Origin: Candidatus Omnitrophota bacterium
GTDB taxonomy: Bacteria; Omnitrophota; Gorgyraeia; Zapsychrales; JANLHA01
DNA: 64,000 nucleotides
NCBI GenBank assembly: GCA_022711395.1
Contig: JAKLFA010000001.1
Span: forward strand, 195,277-259,276
Reading direction: 5' to 3'
Part shown: positions 36,487 through 51,967 of the stretch, one piece after another
Numbering within the stretch: position 1 is the first letter of the stretch
Layout: each line of letters opens with the position of its first letter
Notes under the pieces: generated by a model
What the model was told of the DNA's origin: nothing
What the model saw: only the letters and a program-made list of their open reading frames with translations
Databases searched by the model: none
Program-made: the position numbers and the translations under genes

Positions 36487-36501
36487 GCAAAAGGAGTTGT
36501 T

Positions 36502-36735
36502 GTGAACGAGCTTGTTCTGCCTGAATTGGGTGAGGGGATCAAAGAGGCAACGGTCGTTTGCTGGCATGTGAAGGCCGGATCCCGCGTTGAGAAGGACGAA
36601 GATATCGTTGAGGTTGTGACCGATAAGGCGAGTTTCAACATCCCGTCGCCTTTTTCGGGAACGATCAAAAAAATCTGTATTGACCCCGGCGAGACGGTGC
36701 CAATCGGCTGCGTGCTGGCACACGTTGCGCCTTAA
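36502..36735 (+). CDS. Stand-alone lipoyl-domain protein (77 aa; H-protein-like lipoyl carrier)
   Basis: Lipoyl-attachment consensus (EGxxxxWxxKxGDxVxxxDxxxEVxTDKAxxxIPSPxxGxI) with the target Lys in TDKA. GTG start. Sits immediately after lipB. Confidence 0.75.
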   Translation: MNELVLPELGEGIKEATVVCWHVKAGSRVEKDEDIVEVVTDKASFNIPSPFSGTIKKICIDPGETVPIGCVLAHVAP

Positions 36736-36748
36736 TAAAGGTATTTCC

Positions 36749-37900
36749 ATGAGCCCACATCGAAACAGACGTATCCTTTTAATGTATATCACCAAGGTGT
36801 CAGGTCACCGTCAGGCGACCATGGCGATCCAGAAAGCTTTGAAGCAGCTGAATCCCAATGTCGAGACGCCGATCATCAACGGTTTTGGTTATACGTATCC
36901 CCGGCTGGAGAGAGTCGTTAATGGGGCCTACATGAGCGTAATCAAGACCACTCCTAAGGTTTGGGATTATCTTTACGACAATCCCAAGATCGTGAAAAAA
37001 TCAGCTTCCATAAAGAATTTTTTGCATAAGACCAGCTATTCGAAACTGGACCGCCTGTTCAATCGACATAAGCCGGATGTCGTGGTCTGCACGCAGGCGT
37101 TTCCGTGCGGAATGGTCGCGGCCTATAAGCGGGCCAAGGGGAAAAATTTTAAGGTCGTAGGAGTTCTCACGGATTACGCGCCCCATTCTTATTGGATCAA
37201 CGAAGGAGTGGATTATTATATTGTTCCTTCGACGGAAGCGAAGGAGCGGTTTGTGGCCAAGGGGGTGCCGGGGGACAGCATCAAGATTTATGGAATCCCG
37301 ATCAAGGCGAAATTTTCCGCTCAATTGGATAAAAAACCTATAGCGGATCATTTGGGACTGGACTTGAATATTCCGACCATTCTGATCATGGGGGGTGGAC
37401 AGGGATTGGGCCCGATCAAAAGCGTCGTGAAGTCCCTCATGAAGATCGAGATGCCGCTTCAGATGATCGTCCTGACCGGCGTGAACAAGAAATTATGCAA
37501 GTGGCTTGATGTCAAGGCCCACAAGAAAAATAAATATAACAAAACAGTGATCTTTTACGAATATGCGAACAACGTCGATGAATTGATGGAAGTTTCCGAC
37601 CTCATTGTCACCAAGCCCGGCGGGATGACGACCAGCGAATCTCTGGCGAAAGGCCTTCCGATGGCGATCGTCAATCCCCTGCCCGGACAGGAGATGCGAA
37701 ATACCGATTATCTTTTAAAAAAGAACATAGCCATACGCATCGATAAGAATTCCGACATCGGAGAAGAGATCGAGCTGCTTTTAAGGTCCCCTGAACGTTT
37801 GGCTGAAATGAGCAAGGCGGCCTTTGAGAACGCGCATCCGCATTCGGCGCTGGATATAGCCCAGTTGATCTTGCACGATACAGGGGCCGATAAAGAATAA
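36749..37900 (+). CDS. GT28-family glycosyltransferase (MGDG synthase / UgtP-like diacylglycerol glycosyltransferase)
   Basis: N-terminal G-H motif (VSGHRQ), GGGQGLGP and KPGGMTTSE motifs typical of the MurG/MGD GT-B fold. Confidence 0.75.
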   Translation: MSPHRNRRILLMYITKVSGHRQATMAIQKALKQLNPNVETPIINGFGYTYPRLERVVNGAYMSVIKTTPKVWDYLYDNPKIVKKSASIKNFLHKTSYSKLDRLFNRHKPDVVVCTQAFPCGMVAAYKRAKGKNFKVVGVLTDYAPHSYWINEGVDYYIVPSTEAKERFVAKGVPGDSIKIYGIPIKAKFSAQLDKKPIADHLGLDLNIPTILIMGGGQGLGPIKSVVKSLMKIEMPLQMIVLTGVNKKLCKWLDVKAHKKNKYNKTVIFYEYANNVDELMEVSDLIVTKPGGMTTSESLAKGLPMAIVNPLPGQEMRNTDYLLKKNIAIRIDKNSDIGEEIELLLRSPERLAEMSKAAFENAHPHSALDIAQLILHDTGADKE

Positions 37901-37934
37901 ACTTTCTTCTTAAAGAAAGTGGACCTTTGAGGGT

Positions 37935-38831
37935 ATGTTCAAATATTTTTTTTATCGATTCGCTTTGATGTTCACCAGCCTGTTTCCCGTCGAATGGTGT
38001 TACGGGATAGCCCATCTGATCGCCCGTATTCAGTTTTATTGCTCCCCCCGGGACCGCGCTGCGGTGATCGATAATCTTCAACAGATCCTTGGAAACAGGG
38101 AAAAAGCCAAGCGTCTGGCCGTGGAGGTCTTTCGCCATTTTGCCTGTTATTTGGTGGAATTTTTCCGTATGGGACAAGACCTCGATGACGCGTTCATTTC
38201 CCGGAAAGTTGAACTGCAGGATTTCGATCTTTTGAAGCAGGGTCTGGCGAAGGGGCGCGGGGTTATCCTGTTGACCGGGCATATCGGGAACTGGGAGCTT
38301 GGAGGGCTTGTGATCAGTTGCCTGGGCTATCCGTTCACGGCGATCGCCCTGCCGCATAAAGAGCGTCCGGTCAATGAGCTTTTTAATTCCCAAAGGGAAA
38401 AATTCGGCGTTAAGATCGTTCCGGCCCATCTGGCCATTCGTCGCTGTTTGAAAGACCTTAAGGACAACCGTGTTGTCGCGATCCTTGCTGATCGTGATTT
38501 CAGCGTCACGGGGGAGGCGAGGAGTGTTTTTGGTAAGACCATGATGATCCCTAAAGGCGCGGCGCTGTTCGCCTATCGCACGGGAGCTGCCGTTATACCG
38601 GCTTTTTTACGGCGCAACCCTGACCATACGTTCCGTCTCGCTTTTGGCCCGGTTTTTGATTTGCCGGAAGATCCCCATCAGATGATGGAAGATGTGTTTG
38701 TGAACCATTTTCTCGACCAGCAGGTGAAAATGATCGAACAGGAAGTGCGCAGGGACCCTGCTCAATGGATGATGTTCCGGCGGTTCTGGTTCGATCAGAC
38801 GGCCGCTCCTGAAAGGATTACCAGTACATGA
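37935..38831 (+). CDS. Lipid A late acyltransferase family protein (LpxL/HtrB-like)
   Basis: HIGNWELGG motif (HxxxxE of the Lip_A_acyltrans family). About 300 aa, with an N-terminal membrane anchor. Confidence 0.7.
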   Translation: MFKYFFYRFALMFTSLFPVEWCYGIAHLIARIQFYCSPRDRAAVIDNLQQILGNREKAKRLAVEVFRHFACYLVEFFRMGQDLDDAFISRKVELQDFDLLKQGLAKGRGVILLTGHIGNWELGGLVISCLGYPFTAIALPHKERPVNELFNSQREKFGVKIVPAHLAIRRCLKDLKDNRVVAILADRDFSVTGEARSVFGKTMMIPKGAALFAYRTGAAVIPAFLRRNPDHTFRLAFGPVFDLPEDPHQMMEDVFVNHFLDQQVKMIEQEVRRDPAQWMMFRRFWFDQTAAPERITST

Positions 38832-39493
38832 ACCTGTATGTTGTTATTCCGGCGTTGAACGAAGAGGCTTATGTCGGCGAGATTGTCAGCGGGATCTGCC
38901 GCTTGGGTTTTGATGTGGTGGTCATCGATGATGGGTCGCGGGATTCGACGGGGGAGACGGCTCGGCAGAACGGGGCGCATGTTATCCGTCATGCCATTCG
39001 ACAGGGCAAGGGCGCGTCTTTGCGGGATGGATTCCAGCACGCCTTAACCCAAGGGTGTGATGCGGTCGTTACCATGGATGGCGATGGACAGCATGCGGTC
39101 TCGGACCTGCCGGCTTTTATTGAAAAATTTGAGAATGAACCCGGGTATGGTGTTATCAATGGTTCCCGTATGCTTTCTTGCCGGAGCATGCCGAAGGTGC
39201 GCTTGTACACGAATCGTTTGATGTCGGCTTTGATATCCTGGCTGTGCCGTCAGCGCATCGCGGATACTCAGTGCGGGTTTCGTTTGATCCGGGCGGACGT
39301 GCTGAGAAAGGTCACGTTGCGTTCGGCTGGTTTTCAGATCGAAAGTGAACTGCTGATCGAGGCGGCCCGTGCGGGTTTTACGATCGGTTCAGTTCCAATC
39401 CAGACGATCTACTCGGATGAAAAAAGCAGCATTAACCCTGTTGTCGACACGTTTCGTTTTATTGGGTTTTTCATCAACCAGCTTTTTCGGTGA
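38828..39493 (+). CDS. GT2 polyprenyl-phosphate sugar transferase (DPM1/ArnC/GtrB-like)
   Basis: VVIPALNEE, DDGSRDST and DGDGQH (DxD) motifs. Confidence 0.8.
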   Translation: MNLYVVIPALNEEAYVGEIVSGICRLGFDVVVIDDGSRDSTGETARQNGAHVIRHAIRQGKGASLRDGFQHALTQGCDAVVTMDGDGQHAVSDLPAFIEKFENEPGYGVINGSRMLSCRSMPKVRLYTNRLMSALISWLCRQRIADTQCGFRLIRADVLRKVTLRSAGFQIESELLIEAARAGFTIGSVPIQTIYSDEKSSINPVVDTFRFIGFFINQLFR

Positions 39494-40206
39494 ATAGAAT
39501 GTCTTATCAATATTTATTATCATTGGAACGCAAGATCTTTCGCTGGGCATTGGTAACGTCTTTGGTGTTTCATTTGGTCCTGCTGCTGGTGGCGTTTCTG
39601 ACGAACATTCATTACAAAAAAAGAGTCTCAAAAGCAAAAGACATTGAAGTGGTCTATCAGACCCTTCAGCAGGAACAAAAGCAGGAGCCCTTTCGGGCAG
39701 ACCCGCTTCAAAGCGTCGGTCATAAAAAAAAGGTGGACTCGCCCAAGGTGTTGATCAAGCCGAAACTCGACGTGGATGTTCCATTCAAACCGCTGGACAA
39801 AGCCCCCGTGCAGGTGCCGGACCAGGGCCAACCTTTGGCTAAACCGTTGGTGTCCAGTTCAAAACGCCAGATCGCCGTTCCTTTGCTGCAGTCTGAAAAG
39901 ATCTCGAACCCTCGTTATTTGACTTATCATGAACAGGTTCGGGACAAGATCCGCAACAGGGCATATCAGTATGTTGATAATCCCCGTTTTGAGGCGGGTG
40001 AGGTCTATTTGACATTTGTCCTGGCGTCCGATGGCGAATTGAAGGATGTCCAGATCGTCCATGAGCGTAGCAGGGCTAACCCCTTTTTGAAAAGCGTTGG
40101 CCTGCGAAGCATCAAGGAGTCTGCGCCGTTTCCGGCGTTCCCAAAAGATTTGAACTATCCGGAGCTCACCTTTAACGTCGTGATTTCTTTTGAGGTCGGG
40201 GAATAG
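39490..40206 (+). CDS. TonB-family protein (N-terminal TM anchor, Pro/Lys-rich spacer, C-terminal TonB domain)
   Basis: Single N-terminal TM helix and a proline-rich linker (KPKLDVDVPFKPLDKAPVQVPDQGQP). The C-terminus fits the TonB_C beta-alpha-beta pattern. Confidence 0.6.
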   Translation: MNRMSYQYLLSLERKIFRWALVTSLVFHLVLLLVAFLTNIHYKKRVSKAKDIEVVYQTLQQEQKQEPFRADPLQSVGHKKKVDSPKVLIKPKLDVDVPFKPLDKAPVQVPDQGQPLAKPLVSSSKRQIAVPLLQSEKISNPRYLTYHEQVRDKIRNRAYQYVDNPRFEAGEVYLTFVLASDGELKDVQIVHERSRANPFLKSVGLRSIKESAPFPAFPKDLNYPELTFNVVISFEVGE

Positions 40207-40223
40207 AGAAAGGACGATCAGTC

Positions 40224-41765
40224 ATGAACAGCGTTATTCATTTGCCCGTCCTTTTGTATTATTCTTGCGCTGCCATATTCATTTTTTTTGTTTTTGGGGT
40301 CTTCCATAATTTGAAAGATTCTTCGGCGCTCTTTTGCAGTGTTGGAAAAAAGGGATGGCTGGCCCTGGCTGCGGTGTGCTTGGCCGCTGCTGTCTTACGC
40401 TTTGGCGTCATCGAGCATCGGCATTATGTGTTCTATGATGAATATGAACATATCAATATTGCCAAGAATATGGCAGAGTCCAAACAATTCTCCCGATGCG
40501 ATCTTTACCTTGACGGGCGGTGTTTATCCTTTCAGCCTCCGCAATGGACCCCGGGATATCATTTTTTGCTTTCTTTGGTCTTCCGGCTTTTCGGGCCCTC
40601 TGAGGAGGCGGCGTTTTTATGGAACGCTGTCTTGGGGGTGTTTTCGGTCGCGGCCCTTTTTCTTGTCCTTTATCTGATCACGGAGCAATGGTCCATATCG
40701 ACCGTCTTCGCTTTTGTTCTTACGATGACGCCGTTGCACATGAAATTTTCCGGGAATTCCTCACCGGAAATGGCATCATTCTTATTCATTTCGTTAAGCG
40801 TGCTTGCGCTTTTGATCTTTTCCAAAAGTCAGACCGACGGGGCATTCCTTCAACTGGTATCGGTTGCGGCTTACACGCTCCTTTTACGACCGGAGAATGG
40901 ATTGATCCTGCTTTTGATCATGGCGTGGTTGGCCTTTTTTGCACGAACAGACCGCCGCTATTTTGGGAAAGCTTTGAACGCCATCGTTGCGTTCATTCCG
41001 TATGTTCTCTGTCTGATGGCGATCCGTGATTATCAGATCACCCGTTGGTTTCAGCATAATGAGGGGGAGGTCTTCCTTACGGAATTTTTCAGGAGTGTCC
41101 ACTCATGGACGGGAAATCAGATGATCCCGCTGGCCTGCGTGATCCTGGCGGGAATCGGGGCCTTGGGGGCTTTTAAGAAAGACGGGAAAATCATCCGCTG
41201 GTCGGTAGTGTATTTTTTCATTTTTTTGATTTTTTATTCACTGATGCGCAGGACGATGATGGGTGATACCCAGCGCCTGAACCTTCAGTTTTATCTTCCG
41301 GTCATTATTTTAGCGGTTTTCGGATTTAAAAGAACATGCCGTTTGTTGGGAGAATTTTTCAGGAGTTCAAAACTGGCCTTCGCGGTCTTGATCGCTGTAA
41401 TTTTCTTTAATTGTTGCCAGGCCTTTCCATTCATTTTCGAGGAGATCTCTCTCCCTGTTTTTCAGGAAGAATATAAACTGCTTTTAAAAGGCCGCGCCAT
41501 TGACGATCGAGTGGTTTTTATAAGTTGTAATCCGTCGTTCATTATTACGGTCCTGGGAAAATCAAGCGTGCTGGTTTCACAGGCGATGGATGAGCAGTTT
41601 TTTAATGCCTATCTCAAGGACAGGGACTTGGTCTTGGTCGATGATTATTGGTGCGCGAGGGGAGAAGGGGGATGCGGGGAGTTTAAGAAAAAATACCGCG
41701 TGGAACCGTTTTATGCTCACGGGCAGCAGTTTGGCCGGGAGATGTTTTATTTGGTAAAAAAATAG
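40224..41765 (+). CDS. GT-C-fold membrane glycosyltransferase (PMT/ArnT-like, 513 aa, multi-pass)
   Basis: About 11-13 predicted TM helices. A DE-containing first extracytoplasmic loop motif (FYDEYEH). Translationally coupled to the upstream GT2 and TonB genes. Confidence 0.5.
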   Translation: MNSVIHLPVLLYYSCAAIFIFFVFGVFHNLKDSSALFCSVGKKGWLALAAVCLAAAVLRFGVIEHRHYVFYDEYEHINIAKNMAESKQFSRCDLYLDGRCLSFQPPQWTPGYHFLLSLVFRLFGPSEEAAFLWNAVLGVFSVAALFLVLYLITEQWSISTVFAFVLTMTPLHMKFSGNSSPEMASFLFISLSVLALLIFSKSQTDGAFLQLVSVAAYTLLLRPENGLILLLIMAWLAFFARTDRRYFGKALNAIVAFIPYVLCLMAIRDYQITRWFQHNEGEVFLTEFFRSVHSWTGNQMIPLACVILAGIGALGAFKKDGKIIRWSVVYFFIFLIFYSLMRRTMMGDTQRLNLQFYLPVIILAVFGFKRTCRLLGEFFRSSKLAFAVLIAVIFFNCCQAFPFIFEEISLPVFQEEYKLLLKGRAIDDRVVFISCNPSFIITVLGKSSVLVSQAMDEQFFNAYLKDRDLVLVDDYWCARGEGGCGEFKKKYRVEPFYAHGQQFGREMFYLVKK

Positions 41766-41874
41766 TTGTGGCGGGGCTAATGCCGGATTTTTTGATGAAT
41801 GATTTTTGTTGAAATAAAAAAATTTTGTTATATACTTAATCGTAACCTATCGGTACGATTTATGCTACCGAAGT

Positions 41875-41905
41875 AATAAAGAACGAATGTTCTTTATTTT
41901 TTTAT
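41875..41905 (+). terminator. Terminator-like perfect 10-bp inverted repeat with a T-tract, in the AT-rich spacer upstream of the sensor kinase
   Basis: AATAAAGAAC gaat GTTCTTTATT followed by ttttttatttcttt. The stem is AT-rich, so it is weak. Confidence 0.35.
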
Positions 41906-41964
41906 TTCTTTAAGAGTGAAAAATTTCACGATATATCAATATATCCCATATTTTTTACTGAAGT

Positions 41965-43824
41965 GTGATAAAAATAATGATAAATTTCAAAAAACCAACT
42001 AAACTTTGGACAACAATCCTGATTGGGATCTTTGCGATGGTCCTTTTTTGGGGTTTATTTATGTCTGGTTACGGTTTTTTTGTTGTGAAGCGCTATATTT
42101 TTAAGGAAGCCCGGCAGACGCTTGAACAGAATCTCAATACAGTCCGCAACGTTTATAAAGAGCGGATGAATCAGATGAGGATCGCGTTTAATATTGTTAA
42201 TCCTGATTCTGATCTGAACGCCGTGAAAAACGAACTAAGCCTGGATTATTTTGGAGTTGTGAACGCCGCTCAGCAAGCGACATCCAGCAGTGAAGTTGTT
42301 CAGGAAGCCTTTTTGACCGGGCAACCCGTCGTTGCAAGCCGCATCATGAGGAAAGAAGAACTGGAGCGTATTCGGCCAGGAATGATTGTTCCGATGGCAT
42401 CGGCCTTGATAGCAAGTCCTGCAGAACAGGCGCAGCTTCAAGATGCTCTCAGCATGGAATTTGCACGGCCGATCTTAGGGCCGGATGGGCGGGTTGAGAA
42501 AGTCCTTTACGGCGGGGAAATTGTGAATAATAATTTTAATTTTATTGACCATATCGTCAACGTGGTCTTTGAACCGAAGGCATATGATGGAAAACCTTAC
42601 GGGATCATTACGATCTTTCAAAATGATGTGAGGATCGCAACGAATGTTTTGGATAAGGGCGGCGAGAGGGCGGTTGGCACAAAGATCTCAAAGGATGTTT
42701 ATAATAAAATTGTTGAACAGCGCGGTTCTTGGCTTGGCCGGACGTTTGTCGTGACGGATTGGTATATTGCGGCCTGCGAGCCCATTTTAAATGTCCGGGG
42801 AGAAATTATCGGAGGCCTTTATGTCGGGATTCTGGAAAAGCCGTTCCAATTGCTGGGAGAAAAGCTTTTCCTCGGGCTTTTGATGATCATTATGATGGGC
42901 GTCATTCCGACACTGATCTTCGCTTATTTTTTAGCGAATTCCTTGGTGCGCCAGTTGACGCAGATGGTCCGAACGACCGTGAAGATCGCGCAAGGGGAGC
43001 TGGAAAGTAAGATCGACACGACGGGCTTATCTGTTCATGAAATGAAAGAGCTGGGTGAATCGATCAATTATATGTCAGAAAAGCTGGTTGAAAGGGAAGA
43101 GAGTTTAGAAGAAACACACAAGCGTTTGGAGGTCATGAATAAAAGGTATTTGGACCTGATCGGCTTTGTTGCTCATGAACTGAAAGGGATCTTGTCTTCG
43201 ATCGTTCTAAACACATACCTTTTACAGAAAAAGATCCTGGGGGATATCAATCCCAAGCAGGAAAGTGTCCTGAAGTCCATGGGCAGGAATCTGGATTATT
43301 TGACCGTCACGGTGAAGAATTTTCTTAATCTGAGCAGGATCGAAAAAGACGAACTGAAGGTCGATAAACAGGAGATCTTTCTCAAAGAGCATCTGCTTGA
43401 TCCGGCCATTGAGTCTTTTCAGCAGCAGGCGGAAGAGAAAAATATTATGATCTCTAATACGGTCGACGCGCGTTTGAGCGTGCGGGTTGATTCGGGATTG
43501 ATGCAGATCGTCGTGAATAATTTATTGAGTAATGCGGTCAAATATGGCCTTGAGGGGGGGAAGATCAGGATCACGGCAAAAAATCAGGAAGACATGCTGG
43601 AGGTTGAGGTTTATAATGACGGAGAACCGATAGCCAGTATTGATATGGACAAGTTGTTCAAGAAGTTCTCCCGGGTCCTTTATCGCGGACAGGAAAGCGT
43701 GAAAGGAACAGGGATCGGGCTGTTTATCTCAAAAGAGATCATTGAACGCCATGGCGGTCATATTTGGGTGGAACCTGCCTTGAAGGGGAATTCGTTCAAA
43801 TTTCAGATACCAAGATCAAATTAA
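41965..43824 (+). CDS. Membrane sensor histidine kinase (two TM helices flanking a ~250-aa extracytoplasmic sensor domain, HAMP/coiled coil, HisKA, HATPase_c)
   Basis: H-box FVAHELKGIL, N-box NLLSNAVKYG, G1 NDGEPI, G2 GTGIGLFISK. GTG at 41965 or ATG at 41977. Confidence 0.88.
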   Translation: MIKIMINFKKPTKLWTTILIGIFAMVLFWGLFMSGYGFFVVKRYIFKEARQTLEQNLNTVRNVYKERMNQMRIAFNIVNPDSDLNAVKNELSLDYFGVVNAAQQATSSSEVVQEAFLTGQPVVASRIMRKEELERIRPGMIVPMASALIASPAEQAQLQDALSMEFARPILGPDGRVEKVLYGGEIVNNNFNFIDHIVNVVFEPKAYDGKPYGIITIFQNDVRIATNVLDKGGERAVGTKISKDVYNKIVEQRGSWLGRTFVVTDWYIAACEPILNVRGEIIGGLYVGILEKPFQLLGEKLFLGLLMIIMMGVIPTLIFAYFLANSLVRQLTQMVRTTVKIAQGELESKIDTTGLSVHEMKELGESINYMSEKLVEREESLEETHKRLEVMNKRYLDLIGFVAHELKGILSSIVLNTYLLQKKILGDINPKQESVLKSMGRNLDYLTVTVKNFLNLSRIEKDELKVDKQEIFLKEHLLDPAIESFQQQAEEKNIMISNTVDARLSVRVDSGLMQIVVNNLLSNAVKYGLEGGKIRITAKNQEDMLEVEVYNDGEPIASIDMDKLFKKFSRVLYRGQESVKGTGIGLFISKEIIERHGGHIWVEPALKGNSFKFQIPRSN

Positions 43825-43838
43825 CAGAAGGTGGTGAC

Positions 43839-44717
43839 ATGAAAAACAAGATTTTACTCGTGGACAATGACAGGGATTTCTTGGAAGCGACAGCGATCCT
43901 TTTGGAATCCGACGGCTATGATGTGGTCAGGGCATCGAACGGGCAAGAAGGTTTTCAAAGGGCCAAGGAAGAGTCTCCGGACCTGATCCTGCTGGATATG
44001 ATGATGACGTATAAGACGGAAGGGGCGGAAATGGCAAAGGCCCTTGCGGCGGACGCGGCGACACACAATATCCCGCTGATCCTGATCACCGGGGCTAAAA
44101 AGGAGATGGGGTTTCCCTTTGAGATCAAGCCTGACGAAAAGGACCTGCCGGTCAAGATGGTGATCGAAAAACCGATCCAGCCTGAACGGCTGCTGAGCAC
44201 GGTGAAGCTTTTCATTAAGAAGACCGGCCTTGAACACCGCAGTTTTGTTGGAGAGATCGACGCTCTTGTTGACAAATGGAGCGGCAAAGACGGGAATCTT
44301 ATCATGATCCTCCACGAGATCCAGAATCATTACGGGTATGTTCCGCGGGAGGCCGCTTTTGAACTTCGCCGGCTGTTAGGTATTCCGCTGGCGCGTATTT
44401 ATGAAGTGATCACGTTTTATAATTATTTCAAGCTCGATCCGCCGGGAAAGCATTTGATCTCGGTCTGTATGGGTACGGCGTGCTATTTGAAAGGGGCGCC
44501 TGGCTTATTATCGGAGTTGAAAAATTTATTGAATGTTGAAGAGGGGCAGACAACTCCGGACGGTCTTTTTCATCTTCAGATCGTGCGTTGTTTAGGGTGC
44601 TGCGGCCTGGCTCCGGTCATGACGGTCGATGGGAAGATCTATGGTAAGGTCAAGAAGGAAAACGTGATCAATATTTTATCTGAATATTCAAAAGAAAAAA
44701 TGGAAGTTGTTCAATAA
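43839..44717 (+). CDS. hydC: Receiver (REC) domain fused to the NuoE/HydC-type [2Fe-2S] thioredoxin-like subunit of an [FeFe] hydrogenase
   Basis: Residues 1-125 form a CheY-like receiver (DND acidic pocket, phospho-acceptor Asp in LILLDMMM, Thr in ILITG, Lys in IEKPI). Residues ~160-293 are NuoE-like with C-x4-C (CMGTAC) and C-x3-C (CLGCC). The RBS GAAGGTGGTG lies 14 nt after the kinase stop. Confidence 0.85.
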   Translation: MKNKILLVDNDRDFLEATAILLESDGYDVVRASNGQEGFQRAKEESPDLILLDMMMTYKTEGAEMAKALAADAATHNIPLILITGAKKEMGFPFEIKPDEKDLPVKMVIEKPIQPERLLSTVKLFIKKTGLEHRSFVGEIDALVDKWSGKDGNLIMILHEIQNHYGYVPREAAFELRRLLGIPLARIYEVITFYNYFKLDPPGKHLISVCMGTACYLKGAPGLLSELKNLLNVEEGQTTPDGLFHLQIVRCLGCCGLAPVMTVDGKIYGKVKKENVINILSEYSKEKMEVVQ

Positions 44718-44728
44718 AGGGGGAATCG

Positions 44729-46531
44729 ATGGTGAAGTTGAGCATGGCCCAGTTGGACAGTTTTAAACGGAAAAAAGAGGATGGGGTCGTCGTCAGGGTC
44801 GGCATGAGCTCTTGCGGGGTTGCCGCCGGTTCAAAAGACACCTTTCAAAAGATCCAGTCCGAACTTAAAGCCAATGGAATTGACGCGGAGTTGATGAAGT
44901 GCGGATGTTTGGGAATGTGCTATGCCGAACCCTTGGTCGAGATTGAACGGCACGGGGTTTTGGAAGGAACTTATGGTAATGTTGACGCGAAGGCGGCCGC
45001 AGAGATCATTCAGCATCATCTTGTGAAGGGAAATCCGCAGGCTGCGGAGATCTCGAAATACCGCATCGTGACGTCTGAAAAGCAGATCAGGATCGTTCTG
45101 CGTAATTGCGGGGTGATCGACCCTGAGAATATCGAGGATTATTTGGCGCAGGACGGCTATCAGGGATTAAAGAAGGTCTTGACCAAAGGGGCCCCGGACA
45201 AGGTCCTGGAGGAGCTTAAACTGAGCGGTTTGCGAGGGCGCGGCGGCGGCGGATTTCCGACGTGGATGAAGTGGAGTTTCGCGCGGGGAGTGCAGGCAGA
45301 CCAAAAATTCATCATTTGCAATGGCGATGAAGGAGACCCGGGTGCGTATATGGACAGAAGCGTCCTGGAAGGGGATCCTCACTCGGTCCTGGAGGGAATG
45401 ATCATAGCCGGTTTCACGGTGGGCGCCAGCCGTGGTTTCTTTTATATTCGGGCGGAATATCCTTTGGCTATTGAGCGAATCCAGAAAGCGATCGACCAGG
45501 CGCATGAGTATGGCCTTTTGGGTGAGCATATCTTGGGAACGAAATTCTCCTTTGACCTGGAGGTTCGATTGGGGGCCGGCGCTTTTGTCTGCGGTGAAGA
45601 GACGGCGCTGATCGCTTCGATCGAAGGCAAACGGGGATGCCCAACGCCGCGTCCGCCATATCCTTCGGTGAAGGGGCTGTGGGGAAAACCGACGGTTATC
45701 AATAATGTGGAAACATTGGCCAATGTTCCGGTCATCCTTAACAAAGGCGGCGAGTGGTTCTCCCAGATCGGGACCAAGGATTCGAAGGGGACCAAGGTCT
45801 TTGCCTTAACAGGAAAAGTGAAGAATACCGGACTTGTCGAGGTCCCTATGGGGATCACATTGCGAGAGATCGTTTTTGATATTGGCGGCGGAACTGCCAA
45901 CGGCAAAAAGATCAAGGCGATCCAGACCGGAGGGCCTTCCGGAGGAGTCATTCCTGAGCAGTTTTTTGACACGCCGGTTGACTATGAGAACCTTCAGAAA
46001 CTGGGTTCGATCATGGGCTCCGGCGGCATGATCGTTATGGATGAGGATGACTGCATGATCGATATCGCGAAATTTTATCTGGGATTTTGTGTTGATGAGT
46101 CATGCGGAAAATGCGCGCCTTGCCGTATCGGCGGCACGCAATTGCTGGGTTATTTGAAGGACATCTCGGAAGGCAAGGCTTCCGAGGATGATCTGGCAAA
46201 GATGCGCAGGATCTCTGTGGCAATGCAGAAGGCCTCGTTGTGCGGCCTGGGGCAGACGGCCTCCAATCCTGTTCTTTCGACATTGCAGTATTTTGAAGAG
46301 GAGTACCGGACGCATATTAAGGACAAGCGTTGTCCGGCAGGAAAGTGCAGCCAGCTTTTCAACTACAGCATCATTCAGGAGAAATGCCGTCGCTGCACCC
46401 TTTGCCAGCGCAACTGTCCTGTGGGGGCGATCCCCGGGGACCGGGAGCAGGGATTTTGGATCGTACCGGAAAAATGTATCCGCTGCGGGCAGTGTTTTGA
46501 AGTTTGTAAATTTGGAGCGATCAAACGATAG
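44729..46531 (+). CDS. hydB: NuoF-like NAD(P)H/FMN-binding subunit of an [FeFe] hydrogenase (HydB)
   Basis: N-terminal thioredoxin-like 2Fe-2S domain, GRGGGGFPT FMN/NADH motif, ESCGKCAPCR N3 cluster motif, and two C-terminal 4Fe-4S ferredoxin motifs. Confidence 0.9.
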   Translation: MVKLSMAQLDSFKRKKEDGVVVRVGMSSCGVAAGSKDTFQKIQSELKANGIDAELMKCGCLGMCYAEPLVEIERHGVLEGTYGNVDAKAAAEIIQHHLVKGNPQAAEISKYRIVTSEKQIRIVLRNCGVIDPENIEDYLAQDGYQGLKKVLTKGAPDKVLEELKLSGLRGRGGGGFPTWMKWSFARGVQADQKFIICNGDEGDPGAYMDRSVLEGDPHSVLEGMIIAGFTVGASRGFFYIRAEYPLAIERIQKAIDQAHEYGLLGEHILGTKFSFDLEVRLGAGAFVCGEETALIASIEGKRGCPTPRPPYPSVKGLWGKPTVINNVETLANVPVILNKGGEWFSQIGTKDSKGTKVFALTGKVKNTGLVEVPMGITLREIVFDIGGGTANGKKIKAIQTGGPSGGVIPEQFFDTPVDYENLQKLGSIMGSGGMIVMDEDDCMIDIAKFYLGFCVDESCGKCAPCRIGGTQLLGYLKDISEGKASEDDLAKMRRISVAMQKASLCGLGQTASNPVLSTLQYFEEEYRTHIKDKRCPAGKCSQLFNYSIIQEKCRRCTLCQRNCPVGAIPGDREQGFWIVPEKCIRCGQCFEVCKFGAIKR

Positions 46532-46553
46532 ATCTTAAGAAGGAGTTTTATTC

Positions 46554-48299
46554 ATGGGAAAAGCAATTATCAATGATATCCCGGTCGAATTTGAAGACGG
46601 GATGACGATTTTAGACGCGGCGAAGCGCGTCCAGGTCAATATCCCGACCTTATGCAAACATCCGGATGTGGCGGCCAGCGGCGCCTGCGGGATCTGTATC
46701 GTAAAGGTCAAAGGGACCCGAAAGATGATCCGGTCCTGCTGCACTCCGATCGAGGAGGGGATGAATATCATCACCCACGATACGGAGCTTGTGGCGACCC
46801 GCAGGACGGTTTTAGAGCTGATCCTTTCCAATCATCCCAATGATTGTTTGAAGTGCGGCCGCAACAACAACTGCGAATTGCAGAACATGGTCGCTGATTT
46901 CGGGATCCGTGAGGAGAATTTCAAAAAGGTCGTCCGGGAACTTCCGATCGACCGTTCGACCAAGACGATCATCTTGGAGCCCAGCAAGTGCATCAAGTGC
47001 GGGCGTTGCGTCACTGTCTGTCAGGAAACACAGAATGTCTGGGCGCTTTCGTTCTTGGAACGCGGTGTTGAGACCCGTATTTCAGCCGCCGGGGACATCA
47101 AGCTTGGGGAATCGCCCTGTGTGCGCTGCGGCCAGTGTTCTGCTCATTGCCCGACGGGGGCGATCTTTGAACATGATGATACGATCAAGGTCTGGGAAGT
47201 TCTGCAGGACCCGGACAAGCATTGCGTCGTTCAGATCGCGCCTTCGGTGCGCGTCGCGGTCGGCGAGGGCTTCGGAATGAAGCCGGGCACGAACTTGACG
47301 AAAAAACTTTACGCGTTATTAAGACGGCTTGGTTTTAAGGCGGTCTTTGACACGAATTTTTCGGCGGACGTGACGATCATGGAAGAGGCTACTGAATTTG
47401 TTCAGCGTTTTGTGTATAAAAAAGGACCGCTGCCTTTGATCACGACCTGCTGTCCGTCATGGGTGGATTTTATGGAGAAGTTCCATACGGACATGATCGA
47501 GCATTTTTCTTCCGCCAAATCGCCTCAGGAGATCATGGGGGCCTTGGCCAAGACGTATTATCCTGAGACCCGTAAGATCGATCCGTCCAAGGTCGTGGTG
47601 GTTTCGATCATGCCTTGCACGGCCAAGAAGTATGAGATCAGCCGAAGCCAAGACATGTTCGCCTCAGGCTATCAGGACACGGACCTTGTCTTGACGACCC
47701 GTGAACTGATCCGCATGATCAAACAGGCGGGGATCGATTTTGAGAACCTTCCCGATGAGGATCCTGACCATTTGATGGGTGATTATTCCGGCGCGGGGAC
47801 GATCTTCGGGACGACCGGAGGCGTTATGGAGGCGGCGCTGCGCACGGCCTATCATTTCATCACAAAAGAGAACCTGAAGGATGTGGAATTTATGGATGTG
47901 CGCGGGCTCGAAGGCGTTAAAGAGACGTCGGTCACGATCCAGGGCTCAAAGGTAAATATCGCTGTTGCGCATGGTTTAAGTAATGTAGAATATGTCCTGA
48001 ACAAGGTCCGCCAGGCCAAGGAAAACAATGAGCCATTGCCGTATCATTTTATCGAGGTCATGGCCTGTCCGGGCGGATGCATCGGCGGCGGCGGACAACC
48101 GTATGGTGTCAGCAATGAAGTGCGCGCGGCGCGTGCACAGGGCCTTTATGAGGATGATGAAGCCAGCGTGACCCGTTGCAGTCACGACAACCCCTTCGTA
48201 AAGAAGCTTTATGCTGAATACCTTGGGGCTCCGTTAAGTGAGAAGGCTCATCATTTGCTGCACACGAAATACAAACCGCGGCCCGAATATAAGCGTTAA
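46554..48299 (+). CDS. hydA: [FeFe] hydrogenase catalytic subunit (HydA, M3-type with an N-terminal 2Fe-2S domain and 4Fe-4S domains)
   Basis: H-cluster motifs L1 TTCCPSW, L2 MPCTAKKYE, L3 EVMACPGGCIGGGGQP. N-terminal plant-type ferredoxin cysteines and 2x C-x2-C-x2-C-x3-CP. Confidence 0.93.
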   Translation: MGKAIINDIPVEFEDGMTILDAAKRVQVNIPTLCKHPDVAASGACGICIVKVKGTRKMIRSCCTPIEEGMNIITHDTELVATRRTVLELILSNHPNDCLKCGRNNNCELQNMVADFGIREENFKKVVRELPIDRSTKTIILEPSKCIKCGRCVTVCQETQNVWALSFLERGVETRISAAGDIKLGESPCVRCGQCSAHCPTGAIFEHDDTIKVWEVLQDPDKHCVVQIAPSVRVAVGEGFGMKPGTNLTKKLYALLRRLGFKAVFDTNFSADVTIMEEATEFVQRFVYKKGPLPLITTCCPSWVDFMEKFHTDMIEHFSSAKSPQEIMGALAKTYYPETRKIDPSKVVVVSIMPCTAKKYEISRSQDMFASGYQDTDLVLTTRELIRMIKQAGIDFENLPDEDPDHLMGDYSGAGTIFGTTGGVMEAALRTAYHFITKENLKDVEFMDVRGLEGVKETSVTIQGSKVNIAVAHGLSNVEYVLNKVRQAKENNEPLPYHFIEVMACPGGCIGGGGQPYGVSNEVRAARAQGLYEDDEASVTRCSHDNPFVKKLYAEYLGAPLSEKAHHLLHTKYKPRPEYKR

Positions 48300-48374
48300 A
48301 CAGTTTTACGGGGGTCCGGTGGTGTTATGTTTTCAGAAGATCGGAGATGGTTTTGCCGATCAAGGTGAGGAGCG

Positions 48375-49871
48375 ATGTCTACTTCAGAAGTAAAGCAACC
48401 CACATGGCTTGAAAAGCGCGTCCGTCAGGATGAGATCGACAAATATCTTGTGGACGGAAAGGATTTCATCCCGCAGGAGGAGATCCCGCTTTTGCTGGAG
48501 CGTCACAAAAACCCGGACGCGAAACAGGTCCGGGATCTTTTGGATAAATCTTTGGCTATCCAGAGCTTGACCCCGGAGGAGACCGCGGTTCTTTTGAATG
48601 TCGAGGACCCGCAGCTTCTGGCAGAAATGAAATCGGCCTCCCTGAAAGTGAAATTGAAAGTTTACGATAACCGCATCGTGACCTTCGCGCCGTTGTATCT
48701 GGGAAGTTATTGTGTCAACAATTGCAGCTACTGCGGATTTAAAACTGACAACATCAACGCGGAACGTAAAGTTCTCACGCCTTCGGAGATCGTGAAAGAG
48801 GTCGAAGCGCTTACCGGTAAGATCGGCCATAAACGGCTGATCGTTGTCTATGGCGAGCACCCCCGAAACGATGTTGATTATATTGTTTCGAGCATCAAGA
48901 CGATCTACAGTGTCAAGGCGAAGGTCAAGGGCCATGAATCCTGCATTCGCCGGGTCAATGTGAACGCTCCGCCGTTCTCAATTGAGGATCTGAAGAAGAT
49001 CCATGACGCGGGGATCGGGACGTATCAGGTTTTTCAGGAGACCTACCACTTGCCGACGTACCGAAAGGTCCATCCGGCCAATACGATCAAGGGGAATTAT
49101 CGCTGGAGATTGTATTCCATGCACCGCGCGCTGGAAGCTGGCATTGATGATGTGGGGATCGGCGCGCTCTTCGGGCTGGCTGACTGGCGTTTTGACGTGA
49201 TGGGCCTGGTTTACCATTCTCTCGAATTGGAAGAGCGTTTCGGGATCGGTCCGCACACGATCTCCTTCCCGAGGCTGGAACCGGCACTTAACGCCAACAT
49301 GGATCAGTTCAGCAAAACCCGTGTTTCGGATGAGGATTTTAAAAAATTGATCCTGGTCCTGCGCCTGGCGGTTCCACACGCCGGGATGATCATCACCGCG
49401 CGCGAAAGCGCGCAGATCCGCAAAGAGGCGATCGAAATGGGCATCACCCAAACGGATGCCTCTTCCAACATCGGCCTGGGCGGTTATCAAAAAGAGAAAT
49501 CTGCGCAGGACGAAAAGAACCAGCAGTTTATCCTGGGAGATACCAGAAGCCTCGAGGACGTGATCGCTGAGTTTGCCCGCATGGGCTATATTACGTCCTT
49601 TTGCACGGCTGGTTACCGCTGCGGTCGCACGGGGGAGTGCATCATGGAACTTCTGCGCAACGGCCAGGAAGGAAAATTCTGCAAGCTCAACGCTGTCCTG
49701 ACATTTAAGGAATGGGTGGATGATTTTGCCAGTGAAGAAACGCGCAAACTTAGCCTCCCCATCATCGAGCGTGAGATCGCTCAGATCCGCCAGACCAATC
49801 CGCAAATATTCGACCTCTTCATGGAATACTACCGCCGCATCGAAGCCGGTGAGCGGGACCTGTATCTTTGA
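48375..49871 (+). CDS. hydG: Radical-SAM [FeFe] hydrogenase maturase HydG (ThiH-like tyrosine lyase)
   Basis: C-x3-C-x2-C (CVNNCSYC). About 500 aa, with a Cys-containing C-terminal region (CTAGYRCGRTGEC...C). Lies directly downstream of hydA. Confidence 0.65.
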   Translation: MSTSEVKQPTWLEKRVRQDEIDKYLVDGKDFIPQEEIPLLLERHKNPDAKQVRDLLDKSLAIQSLTPEETAVLLNVEDPQLLAEMKSASLKVKLKVYDNRIVTFAPLYLGSYCVNNCSYCGFKTDNINAERKVLTPSEIVKEVEALTGKIGHKRLIVVYGEHPRNDVDYIVSSIKTIYSVKAKVKGHESCIRRVNVNAPPFSIEDLKKIHDAGIGTYQVFQETYHLPTYRKVHPANTIKGNYRWRLYSMHRALEAGIDDVGIGALFGLADWRFDVMGLVYHSLELEERFGIGPHTISFPRLEPALNANMDQFSKTRVSDEDFKKLILVLRLAVPHAGMIITARESAQIRKEAIEMGITQTDASSNIGLGGYQKEKSAQDEKNQQFILGDTRSLEDVIAEFARMGYITSFCTAGYRCGRTGECIMELLRNGQEGKFCKLNAVLTFKEWVDDFASEETRKLSLPIIEREIAQIRQTNPQIFDLFMEYYRRIEAGERDLYL

Positions 49872-49966
49872 GCTCCGGCATCATTTTTTATCTAAAAGGC
49901 TAAAACTTCAAATGATTGGTGTATAATAGAGCTGTTTCCTGTTTTACAACATCTGACGGATGACCC

Positions 49967-50350
49967 ATGATCAAATACAAACCATTCAAATTCTCAGAAC
50001 GCGCGCGAAGTTTTAGATTCGCCTTTCGCGGTATCTGGACCATGCTTAAGTCCCAGCACAACGCCTGGATCTATACGTGCGTCACTGCCTGGGTCATTGC
50101 CGCGGGGTTGTTCTTCCGCCTGACGCCTTCCGAGTGGTGCTGGCTGATCCTGGCGATCATGGCGGTCTGGACTTCCGAAGCCTTGAACACCGCTTTTGAA
50201 TTTTTGGCGGACGTGGCCTCACCGGAGTTTCACCCGTTAGTTGAACATTCCAAGGACGTCGCGGCCGGAGGCGTGTTGATCTCGGCCATTGGTTCTGCGA
50301 TCATCGGTATTGTGATCCTGGGACCGCATTTCGTCAGACTCTTTCAGTAG
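49967..50350 (+). CDS. dgkA: Diacylglycerol kinase / undecaprenol kinase family (DgkA)
   Basis: 127 aa, 3 TM helices, SEALNTAFE and HxLxExSKDVAAGGVLI motifs. Confidence 0.8.
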   Translation: MIKYKPFKFSERARSFRFAFRGIWTMLKSQHNAWIYTCVTAWVIAAGLFFRLTPSEWCWLILAIMAVWTSEALNTAFEFLADVASPEFHPLVEHSKDVAAGGVLISAIGSAIIGIVILGPHFVRLFQ

Positions 50351-50495
50351 TAAACCCCTTTAAAATAATTTATGAAAGAATTCAGACCCTTTGTGCGACT
50401 ATTTAATAGTTCCTAAGCATGAAGGATTTTTTGCGCCTTTTTTAGCTTAAAAAGAACTGCGTTTCAACAACTCATCAGCGAACGGGAGGGGGCGG

Positions 50496-51905
50496 GTGGA
50501 TGTGATAACGGAAATTGAACAGGCAAACGCCATCGAAAAGTATCTTCAAAAACATTTTAGTGATCTTGAACGTTGTTCCCCATACAATGAAAATATCCTA
50601 CAGGAATTTTTAAAGCTCGGGCCTTTTCATTCGTTCATTCCGCGCCCTTTGGGCGGTTGCGGTGAAAATAGTGCATCCTACCTGAAAACGCTCGAAACGG
50701 TATCATATTATTCCCTTCCCTTGGGTCTGACGATGGGGATCACGGGGTCGTTGTTCATCATGCCGATCGTCAAACACGCGCCGTCTGATCTGAGGAACAG
50801 GATTATTTCAGAATTCCTTCACGGAACGCCGCTGGGCGGCATCATGATCACGGAGCCGACGGGAGGAACAGATATTTTCGGCCTTCAAACAAGCCTTTCC
50901 GCTACTCAAGGAGGGATGCTCCTTAACGGCGCCAAATGCTGGGGCGGTTTGACCGGTAAAGCCCAGCACTGGCTTGTGGCCGCGCGGAAAATGCAGGACG
51001 GTAAGCTGACCCGTTCTTTGAATCTGGTCTATGTGCCGCTTTCATCCCCGGGCATTAAGGTGCATACTTATTTTGACGCGCTTGGTCTTCAGCCGATCCC
51101 TTACGGTGAGACGCGGTATTCCAATGTCGTGGTCCCTGAGGAACACAATCTGACGCCCGGAGGGAAGGGCGCGTTGCGGGTCTTGTATGACACGCTGTTT
51201 CGCAGCCGTATGAACATCCCTGCGATCGTTTCCGGCCTGTGCAAACGGCTCTCCGAAGAAAGCGCGGCGTGGGCTTCACGGCGGACGGTATTTGGACAGT
51301 CTATTGACCATTATGACCAGGTGCAGTTCCGGTTGTCGGCGCTTCGGGGTTTCGCGCAGATCAATCATTGCATCCGGCGTTTTGTGGGAACCTGGATGGA
51401 CGGGCATGACGATGTGTCCGGTGATTATGTGCTGGTCAATTCGGTCAAGTTCGTTTCTTCTACCACCATGGCGATCGCGGCGGACTCGGCCATTCATCTG
51501 TTCGCAGCTTCTGCTTATAAACGCAATCATCTGGTCGGGCGGGCTTATGTGGATTGCCGGCCGTTTCAGATCTTTGAAGGCAGCAATGATGTTTTGGATG
51601 ATAACACGTTTTCTGTGCTGGTCGGCCGCTATGGTCGAGTGACACCTGAGGCCATCAGCCAGGAGCTGGAGAAATTCAGGTTGCACATGCCCTCTGATCT
51701 TCCTAAGGGGGTGCTTGATGCGCTGGATGTAAGGGAAGAGGGCTCTCAGCGGCAGAGGGTGCAGTATGGAAGGATCATCGAGTGGATCGTTGTGCGAAGT
51801 CTTGTTGAATACATCGGTGCAGATCAGAAGGTGCCGGTGGAGGACGCCCGGCGCGTCACGAACCGTTATATCGCCTCCTGCACTGCCGAGCTTGCTTATT
51901 TGTAA
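50496..51905 (+). CDS. Acyl-CoA dehydrogenase family protein (469 aa, longer than typical)
   Basis: ACAD signature 1 (IMITEPTGGTDIFG) and signature-2-like QIFEGSNDVLDDNTFSVLVGRYG. GTG start. Confidence 0.65.
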   Translation: MDVITEIEQANAIEKYLQKHFSDLERCSPYNENILQEFLKLGPFHSFIPRPLGGCGENSASYLKTLETVSYYSLPLGLTMGITGSLFIMPIVKHAPSDLRNRIISEFLHGTPLGGIMITEPTGGTDIFGLQTSLSATQGGMLLNGAKCWGGLTGKAQHWLVAARKMQDGKLTRSLNLVYVPLSSPGIKVHTYFDALGLQPIPYGETRYSNVVVPEEHNLTPGGKGALRVLYDTLFRSRMNIPAIVSGLCKRLSEESAAWASRRTVFGQSIDHYDQVQFRLSALRGFAQINHCIRRFVGTWMDGHDDVSGDYVLVNSVKFVSSTTMAIAADSAIHLFAASAYKRNHLVGRAYVDCRPFQIFEGSNDVLDDNTFSVLVGRYGRVTPEAISQELEKFRLHMPSDLPKGVLDALDVREEGSQRQRVQYGRIIEWIVVRSLVEYIGADQKVPVEDARRVTNRYIASCTAELAYL

Positions 51906-51916
51906 AATCATTCCGC

Positions 51917-51960
51917 AAAAAAGGCGCGGTGAAATAGTTCACCGCGCCTTTTTCTTTTTT
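51917..51960. terminator. Bidirectional rho-independent terminator between convergent genes
   Basis: AAAAAA GGCGCGGTGAA atag TTCACCGCGCC TTTTTCTTTTTT. Perfect 11-bp GC-rich stem flanked by an A-tract and a T-tract. Confidence 0.8.
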
Positions 51961-51967
51961 GGGTAAA

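Follow-up and report, generated by a model that had tools for sequence, protein, structure and literature searches.

The window analysed here is a stretch of 64,000 nucleotides (nt) from a Candidatus Omnitrophota bacterium (contig JAKLFA010000001.1). It encodes a protein, REC-HydC, in which a response-regulator receiver domain (REC) is fused to the small [2Fe-2S] subunit (HydC, also BfuC or NuoE-type) of a HydABC-type [FeFe] hydrogenase. The gene and its parts, given in amino acids (aa) where lengths of proteins are concerned, are located as follows:

43839-44717, + strand: REC-HydC fusion gene, 292 aa, with an ATG start at 43839 and the stop codon at 44715-44717
43839-44213, + strand: receiver domain (residues 1-125; PF00072) with D9, N10, D11, D53, T84 and K111
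43995-43997, + strand: GAT codon of the predicted phospho-acceptor Asp53, read from the sequence (LILLDMMM)
44214-44246, + strand: short connector (residues 126-136, KKTGLEHRSFV), inside a predicted helix 115-147 and the least conserved segment of the protein
44247-44693, + strand: NuoE/HydC/BfuC module (residues 137-285), with an N-terminal helical bundle and a thioredoxin-like [2Fe-2S] domain

The ATG at 43839 is directly preceded by AAGGTGGTG, as read from the sequence. A mechanical list of open reading frames (ORFs) contains a longer version that starts from TTG 43764 and runs into the end of the kinase gene; as all homologues open with M-K/R-N-K, 43839 is taken as the real start. Pfam detects a Response_reg domain (PF00072, 58.8 bits with a cut-off of 30.2; residues 5-122, matched to positions 1-110 of the 111 in the profile) and a complete NuoE/HydC [2Fe-2S] domain (2Fe-2S_thioredx, PF01257, residues 141-283, 158.4 bits against 24.8) in the single 292-aa polypeptide, as an earlier reading made from the DNA letters (hereafter, the sequence-only reading) had claimed. 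A homologue search covered 5.8 billion proteins from ENA, NCBI, JGI and Logan assemblies, and the best 120 clusters were used for comparison. Both domains are present in each of these clusters (54-100% identity, all four data sources) with the domain junction uninterrupted, which rules out a local sequencing error: the locus is one ORF and does not resolve into a separate CheY and a normal HydC. The ENA protein P0001 (317 aa) is 100% identical across the whole query, while the NCBI protein P0131 (226 aa; label: partial 'response regulator', Candidatus Omnitrophota metagenome-assembled genome, MAG) matches the 130-aa receiver query at 100% identity. Among those of the best 120 homologues that bear a source name, the majority come from Candidatus Omnitrophota MAGs.

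The sequence-only reading knew of no characterisation of this fusion, which agrees with the database and literature record. Names given to the fusion are automatic (e.g., 'NAD(P)H-dependent oxidoreductase subunit E' and 'NADH:ubiquinone oxidoreductase subunit E/CheY-like chemotaxis protein'), and full-text literature searches, in which subscription journals are thinly covered, returned no description of a receiver-NuoE/HydC fusion. None of the curated NCBIfam models spans it, and the NCBIfam equivalogs stay below their cut-offs (HoxE NF005747, 151.7 vs 224; NuoE NF005722, 132.3 vs 141; TIGR01958, 122.6 vs 142.4). Receiver-controlled enzymes and HydABC are each well known; their combination appears to be new.

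The receiver of the window copy carries the residues expected for phosphorylation: D53 in LILLDMMM, T84 in ILITG and K111 in IEKP. Among the 120 homologues, the conservation reaches 117/118 for D9, 111/120 for D53, 112/120 for T84 and 120/120 for K111; the phospho-acceptor Asp, the Thr and the Lys pointed out in the sequence-only reading are thus all confirmed. Its acidic motif, given as DND, is present as D9-N10-D11 but departs from the D-D-D consensus of the family, with Asn10 at a metal-ligand position (D in 107 and N in 6 of the homologues). Mean pairwise identity is 55% in the receiver, 67-73% in the HydC parts and 30% in the connector. Judged by such comparisons, the receiver is under purifying selection with its catalytic residues conserved, and it belongs to a hydrogenase-dedicated subfamily. 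Neither a DNA-binding nor a sigma-54-activating output domain is detected in the fusion protein by Pfam or NCBIfam; models of PhoB, MtrA and similar regulators match the receiver part only, with scores far under their cut-offs. In the AlphaFold2 model of the fusion protein (mean predicted local distance difference test score, pLDDT, of 82; predicted template modelling score, pTM, of 0.61), the receiver has strands at residues 4-8, 28-32, 49-53, 80-84 and 107-110, and helices 1, 2, 3 and 5 are present. Helix α4 is shrunk to residues 86-90 at low confidence and continues as a low-confidence loop; its site is a non-helical FPFEIKPDEKDLPVK segment that is conserved family-wide (FPFE-KPD---LPVK). 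The β3-α3 loop (DMMMTYKTEG) contains a one-residue insertion and lacks the canonical Pro, in comparison with CheY, PhoB and other receivers.

The C-terminal part of the protein is an ordinary HydC in its fold and ligands. Its cluster is bound by C210 and C215 (CMGTAC) and by C251 and C255 (RCLGCCG), a C-x4-C ... C-x3-C pattern that is invariant in 46 homologues, in accord with the NuoE-type [2Fe-2S] domain recognized in the sequence-only reading. Solved HydC chains align from query residues 137-139 to 283-287 (8a6t_C 16-162, 7t2r_C 9-155, and 7q4v_C 14-156), and 7p5h_C likewise aligns end to end with the module; Foldseek assigns a probability of 1.00 to the same chains at 39-44% identity, the highest value (44%) being reached by 8a6t_C and 7t2r_C. 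The linker of about 35 aa that had been described is not upheld: only some 10 residues (126-136) join the domains, since the solved chains start at query 137-139. In the AlphaFold2 model, the receiver α5 and the first HydC helix constitute one unbroken helix, 115-147 (pLDDT about 85).

Two genes encoding the remaining hydrogenase subunits follow the fusion gene:

44729-46531, + strand: NuoF-like flavoprotein HydB/BfuB, 600 aa, beginning 11 nt 3' of the fusion gene
46554-48299, + strand: HydA, the H-cluster subunit, 581 aa (NCBIfam FeFe_hydrog_A6 NF040763, 800 bits against a cut-off of 765)

HydB is composed of an N-terminal [2Fe-2S] thioredoxin-like domain, Complex1_51K (the NuoF flavin mononucleotide (FMN)/NADH core), SLBB, NADH_4Fe-4S and two C-terminal Fer4 domains (2x[4Fe-4S]), and its residues 25-599 align to residues 12-597 of Acetobacterium woodii HydB (7q4v_B, 723 bits). 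HydA matches Fe_hyd_lg_C (311 bits), Fe_hyd_SSU, Fer2_4 and NADH-G_4Fe-4S_3 in Pfam, and its residues 13-578 align to 7q4v_A 15-581. Both subunits align end to end with the solved bifurcating enzymes of A. woodii and Thermoanaerobacter kivui, so the HydABC context claimed in the sequence-only reading stands. The domain set of HydB, HydA and REC-HydC fits the Bfu family as defined in PMC9304861, where BfuB combines the NuoF FMN domain, SLBB, the NuoF [4Fe-4S] domain and a ferredoxin-type 4Fe-4S domain, and BfuC is the NuoE domain; a ferredoxin- and NAD(P)-coupled bifurcating activity is predicted for the HydABC of the window. HydC (BfuC) subunits of the A. woodii, T. kivui and Thermotoga maritima HydABC and of NiFe-HydABCSL (7Q4V, 8A6T, 7P5H, and 7T2R) share the fold and the four Cys ligands with the window protein, and HydB and HydA are operon partners of the solved HydABC enzymes as they are in the window. 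The difference lies at the N-terminus: the solved HydC chains comprise 150-190 aa and have no signalling domain, whereas the window HydC carries a 125-aa receiver attached through the predicted continuous helix. The fusion gene is the only NuoE-type gene in the window, and by its alignments REC-HydC is the true small subunit of a bifurcating [FeFe] HydABC of the A. woodii/T. kivui type.

The fusion gene is preceded by a gene for a sensor kinase, and the hydrogenase genes are followed by one for a maturase:

41965-43824, + strand: sensor histidine kinase with the domains sCache_3_3 (92 bits), HAMP, HisKA and HATPase_c, ending 14 nt before the fusion gene
48375-49871, + strand: HydG radical-SAM maturase, the last gene of the cluster (TIGR03955, 460 bits against a cut-off of 312)

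The five genes (those of the kinase, REC-HydC, HydB, HydA and HydG) are adjacent on the same strand with short gaps and form a probable operon. Pfam bears out the adjacent sensor kinase of the sequence-only reading, which contains an extracytoplasmic Cache region of about 250 aa between two hydrophobic segments, and an H-box (FVAHELKG) with His404; it is the presumed phosphodonor of the fused receiver. Support for this pairing comes from 18 non-redundant fused loci with readable upstream context. Where Asp53 is kept, the gene directly upstream encodes a histidine kinase in 14 out of 14 loci (12 full-length sCache_3_3 kinases, and two forms of 230 aa made up of the dimerization and histidine phosphotransfer (DHp) domain and the catalytic domain); where it is replaced, no kinase is found in 4 out of 4. 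The phospho-acceptor site of the latter is occupied by Asn in L004, by Glu in L011 (P0042) and L093 (P0037), and by His in L094. The three different residues and the four different surrounding sequences suggest more than one event of Asp loss. Kinase presence is associated with Asp53 at a Fisher exact p of about 3e-4 (18 loci, kinship ignored), and this co-occurrence is the strongest available argument that Asp53 would exist to receive phosphate from the adjacent kinase.

Glu at the phospho-acceptor site, as in L011 and L093, often mimics the phosphorylated state in receivers; these variants hint that the phosphorylated form may be the one compatible with enzyme function. The DHp domain is the best-conserved region of the kinase (0.79 column identity). 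In 13 out of 13 orthologous kinases (L001-L018; window positions 43165-43179, region of residues 401-405), the phospho-His is followed by H-E-L-K-G/S and not by H-E-x-x-T/N. The latter motif of HisKA kinases is associated with phosphatase activity. The unusual H-box may relate to the extra stand-alone receivers that occur at many loci. In one sub-clade, the kinases are reduced to about 230 aa (L015 6287-6976 and L017 469-1155) and consist of DHp and the catalytic domain without the Cache or transmembrane part, which implies an input that would be cytoplasmic or dependent on a partner.

Further evidence for a functional connection between the two domains comes from relatives that encode them separately. 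In L028, L032 and L060, the orthologous operon contains a split pair: a 127-aa receiver gene lies 10-46 nt before a 160-aa hydC. That the pair exists both fused and split (a Rosetta-stone pattern) is a classic sign that receiver and HydC work together. Three other close relatives (L019, L070, and L073) start at contig ends and are not callable as unfused. Stand-alone receivers are also common elsewhere in these operons. A receiver of 127-130 aa directly follows hydA in eight loci (L001 12482-12865, L002 12804-13187, L006 12857-13243, L008, L012, L016, L018, and L060); it is paralogous to the fused receiver, with about half of the residues shared (137 bits) and with the same unusual loops. The window has no such gene after hydA, and hydG takes its place. 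A second operon type consists of Rex, a 123-aa receiver, a 158-aa NuoE, a short NuoF of 409 aa and a HydA of about 634 aa (L007 741-5348, L013 136-4760, and L015 1303-5937) and lies directly upstream of the kinase gene, so that a hydrogenase operon with a receiver of its own is found on either side of the kinase gene. In a third type (L028, L032, and L060), a stand-alone receiver follows the NuoE gene. Receivers of the second and third types share the loop features of the fused one.

The survey of REC-NuoE architectures proposed in the sequence-only reading, carried out as a profile search of 1.84 billion representatives, returned at least 12 clusters at 50% identity, and five of the loci were inspected for their neighbours. 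Members from outside Omnitrophota include Nitrospirota and 'Deltaproteobacteria'/Pseudomonadota MAGs, under the labels Thermodesulfovibrionales, Dissulfurispiraceae, Deltaproteobacteria and Pseudomonadota. Of the 11 receivers aligned, eight are of the canonical type, having the MP motif but no α4 insertion and neither of the Omnitrophota-specific indels; the other three (P0168, P0195, and P0252) are degenerate. The canonical receiver type points to fusion events separate from the one in Omnitrophota, and the non-Omnitrophota fusions are probably independent in origin. Bfu-type enzyme operons host the fusion in the three loci with a molybdopterin subunit: L088 and L089 combine REC-NuoE with BfuB and a molybdopterin formate-dehydrogenase-type subunit, while in L092 REC-NuoE occurs with a molybdopterin and a NuoF-type subunit and with an sCache_3_3 kinase. 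In L090, the genes for REC-NuoE, for HydB and for an Fe-S subunit at the site of hydA come after those for an sCache_3_3 kinase, for an NtrC-type regulator and for a REC-REC protein. The sCache_3_3 kinase thus recurs in two of the five inspected loci (L090 and L092). In L091, REC-NuoE belongs to a cluster with a sensory-type [FeFe] hydrogenase. The latter cluster, from a Pseudomonadota-labelled MAG, also includes DRTGG, HATPase_c_2 and a PHP domain protein, and the gene just ahead of REC-NuoE (L091 4572-5342) codes for a receiver joined to a domain resembling the glycine-cleavage H-protein (GCV_H).

Several known systems resemble parts of this arrangement. As with DivK, CpdR and CheY (which acts on FliM), the window receiver has no DNA-binding output and would exert its effect on a protein machine. 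It differs from this type by its covalent tethering to the presumed target and by the family-specific remodelling of α4 and of the β3-α3 loop; its best NCBIfam match among small receivers, the DVU0259/DivK-like family, scores 58 bits, far below the cut-off of 160. The likeness to stand-alone regulators extends to related Omnitrophota genomes, which encode a free 127-aa receiver next to hydC. In CheB, PleD/WspR and RpfG, phosphorylation of an N-terminal receiver controls catalysis in the same polypeptide or complex; the partner in the window is no self-contained enzyme but transfers electrons as one subunit of a larger metalloenzyme. Hydrogenases are regulated through repression of hyd operons by Rex and through HoxBC-HoxJ-HoxA, the H2-sensing two-component control of [NiFe] hydrogenase transcription, while HydS/Hfs sensory [FeFe] hydrogenases occur with kinase and phosphatase genes in Firmicutes. 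Similarities to these systems include the rex gene and Rex box of most homologous operons and the kinase-type genes that commonly occur near hyd operons (for example, L091). However, Rex, HoxBC-HoxJ-HoxA and HydS/Hfs act on transcription or on unassigned targets, whereas the window receiver is a part of the enzyme.

On the whole, it appears reasonably probable that the Cache kinase controls the hydrogenase directly and after translation, by way of a phosphorylatable REC-HydC. The membrane kinase, adjacent and probably co-transcribed, would sense an extracytoplasmic ligand through its Cache domain and phosphorylate Asp53. A change on the α4-β5-α5 face of the receiver could then travel via the α5 helix, unbroken into the N-terminal helical bundle of HydC, and shift the seating of HydC on HydB/HydA. 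In solved enzymes, the N-terminal four-helix bundle of HydC lies at the HydB/HydA interface, and the C-terminal [2Fe-2S] domain can shift from a HydC-in to a HydC-out position and back (PMC10021017). This movement changes the C1-FMN and C1-B3 distances and has been proposed as a gate of the low-potential branch (PMC10021017; PMC9304861), cluster C1 being called 'the gate or switch' (PMC9304861). With its continuous helix into the N-terminal bundle, the receiver is well placed to influence the position of HydC or the oligomeric state. Phosphorylation would likely bias the HydC-in/HydC-out swing, the proposed gate for electrons passing between FMN, cluster C1 and the ferredoxin branch, or else might change the oligomeric state. 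In either case, production or uptake of hydrogen would be tuned after translation. The sequence-only reading had likewise proposed post-translational control by the adjacent kinase. Its comparative side is strongly supported by conservation, by the tracking of the kinase with Asp53, by the split forms and by the probably independent fusions; that phosphorylation would alter activity, assembly or electron routing is an inference, as are phosphotransfer itself, the direction of its effect and the gating mechanism.

A wider formulation of this idea is possible, on the doubtful side. An extracytoplasmic ligand sensed by Cache would toggle the receiver on the gate subunit HydC/BfuC, and hence switch bifurcation on and off or between a coupled (ferredoxin and NAD) and an uncoupled mode; such control would have evolved more than once across Bfu enzymes, namely in [FeFe] hydrogenases of Omnitrophota and in formate-dehydrogenase-type complexes of Nitrospirota and Desulfobacterota-like lineages. 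The recurrence of REC-BfuC in the latter complexes suggests that a general regulatory principle might exist for the Bfu family.

Electron-bifurcating hydrogenases set the balance of H2, NADH and ferredoxin in anaerobes. Their known regulation is transcriptional (by Rex and by sensory hydrogenases), and a current hypothesis drawn from structures has catalysis gated by the movement of HydC. If true, control through REC-HydC would be the first indication of a two-component system acting on the bifurcating hydrogenase itself. D53 variants, BeF3- and the natural Asp-to-Glu/Asn/His forms would provide natural handles on the HydC-gate model. Few Omnitrophota have been cultured, and among them are very small cells that show host-dependent traits; if an outside signal controls H2 exchange rapidly, this could bear on interactions between Omnitrophota and their partners.

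Several observations weigh against control of this kind. Asn10, the minority state in the family, aligns with Asp13 of CheY, a Mg2+-binding metal ligand, so that the window receiver might be phosphorylated poorly; elsewhere in the family, Asn at this position is often accompanied by further decay of the receiver. The degenerate α4 and the atypical β3-α3 loop indicate that the usual output face is altered, and the inter-domain geometry of the AlphaFold2 model is uncertain, as reflected by its pTM. The association between kinase and Asp53 is derived from the 18 loci without phylogenetic correction. From the weak match of the Cache region to the ligand-binding domain of a chemoreceptor (8py1, E about 1e-5) no ligand is inferable. 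The window lacks both rex and the extra stand-alone receiver of many relatives, so its circuit may differ from theirs.

Some of these features would be expected if the receiver were a pseudo-receiver, i.e., a phosphorylation-independent structural or oligomerization module that stabilizes the complex, with the kinase serving another partner. Apart from Asn10 and the degenerate α4, this explanation is favoured by the kinase-less family members, which keep the receiver despite the loss of Asp53, and by the clearly degenerate receivers among the Nitrospirota fusions (P0195, P0168, and P0252); both suggest that the receiver has some value without phosphorylation. However, the window copy retains D9, D11, D53, T84 and K111, the kinase gene lies 14 nt upstream and kinases track Asp53 (14/14 vs 0/4), and P0011, which is 77% identical, has the same D-N-D motif in an otherwise intact receiver. 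On this evidence, a pseudo-receiver is unlikely.

Signalling in the reverse direction is quite unlikely. The hydrogenase-bound receiver would then serve as an input or a phosphate sink: the redox state or conformation of HydC would alter the gain or loss of phosphate by the receiver, and phosphoryl flux from the kinase would thereby be diverted from another regulator (a paralogous stand-alone receiver or a distant DNA-binding regulator) that constitutes the real output. Two or three paralogous receivers do surround one kinase at many loci, and the operon contains no DNA-binding regulator; a sink would also be useful to kinases with H-E-L-K-G/S (13/13) if the association of H-E-x-x-T/N with phosphatase activity holds. 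The window itself, on the other hand, encodes a single receiver and no other regulator within 64 kb, and a fusion to a catalytic subunit that probably recurs independently in other Bfu enzymes is explained more simply by control of the enzyme.

A very unlikely alternative is that the protein acts as a free-standing redox-sensing response regulator, with the [2Fe-2S] domain as its sensor or output and the true HydC encoded elsewhere. The 64 kb are only a part of the genome, and several NuoE genes lie close together in some relatives. Nevertheless, the fusion holds the hydC position directly before hydB in every inspected locus, the NuoE gene that follows the receiver gene in the split form is the only hydC of that operon, and the NuoE part is 44% identical to solved HydC chains (8a6t_C and 7t2r_C) over the full length of these chains and scores like an unfused HydC. 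Finally, the joining of a CheY-like gene to a normal hydC by an assembly or sequencing artefact, for which the separate adjacent genes of three related species (L028, L032, and L060) might speak, has a negligible probability and is rejected, as both domains share one ORF with a conserved junction in 120/120 of the best clusters from four independent data sources, and P0001 is identical over the query.

Transcription of the operon may be subject to separate regulation, as a candidate operator is located in the AT-rich stretch of 200 nt that separates the kinase gene from its upstream neighbour:

41914-41931, no strand assigned: Rex-operator-like palindrome GAGTGAAAAATTTCACGA, its start lying 51 nt before that of the kinase gene

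Its core, GTGAA-N4-TTCAC, is intact (GTGAA-AAAT-TTCAC), with three mismatches to TTGTGAAN4TTCACAA. Loose matches to the Rex box are not above chance across the window (7 found vs 4.2 expected), and the palindrome is the sole match with an intact core in 36001-52000. In eight of 17 homologous loci, a single such box precedes the first operon gene (rex in seven of them, REC-hydC in the other) at a start-to-start distance of 33-237 nt; most homologous operons start with rex, with one near-consensus Rex box ahead of it. No rex gene is present in the 64-kb window, and the site is proposed as a Rex site from its position and from the parallel sites in homologous loci only. Rex, a sensor of NADH/NAD+, probably exerts this separate control over transcription.

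The window belongs to the chromosome and contains rpoB, rpoC, fusA and tuf at 5-17 kb. The flanks of the cluster are unrelated to hydrogenase: envelope biosynthesis genes lie upstream, and genes of a diacylglycerol kinase and an acyl-CoA dehydrogenase downstream. Neither hydE nor hydF was seen among the flanking ORFs scanned, a subset of the ORFs in the window; relatives encode hydE, hydF and a TM1266-like gene after the operon. The organization of hydB varies as well. In the window, the N-terminal [2Fe-2S] thioredoxin-like domain is fused to HydB (residues 11-95; 44729-45070), and in many relatives the same domain is encoded by its own gene of about 116 aa between hydC and hydB (L002 8891-9241, L004 8880-9230, L006, L007, L012, and others).

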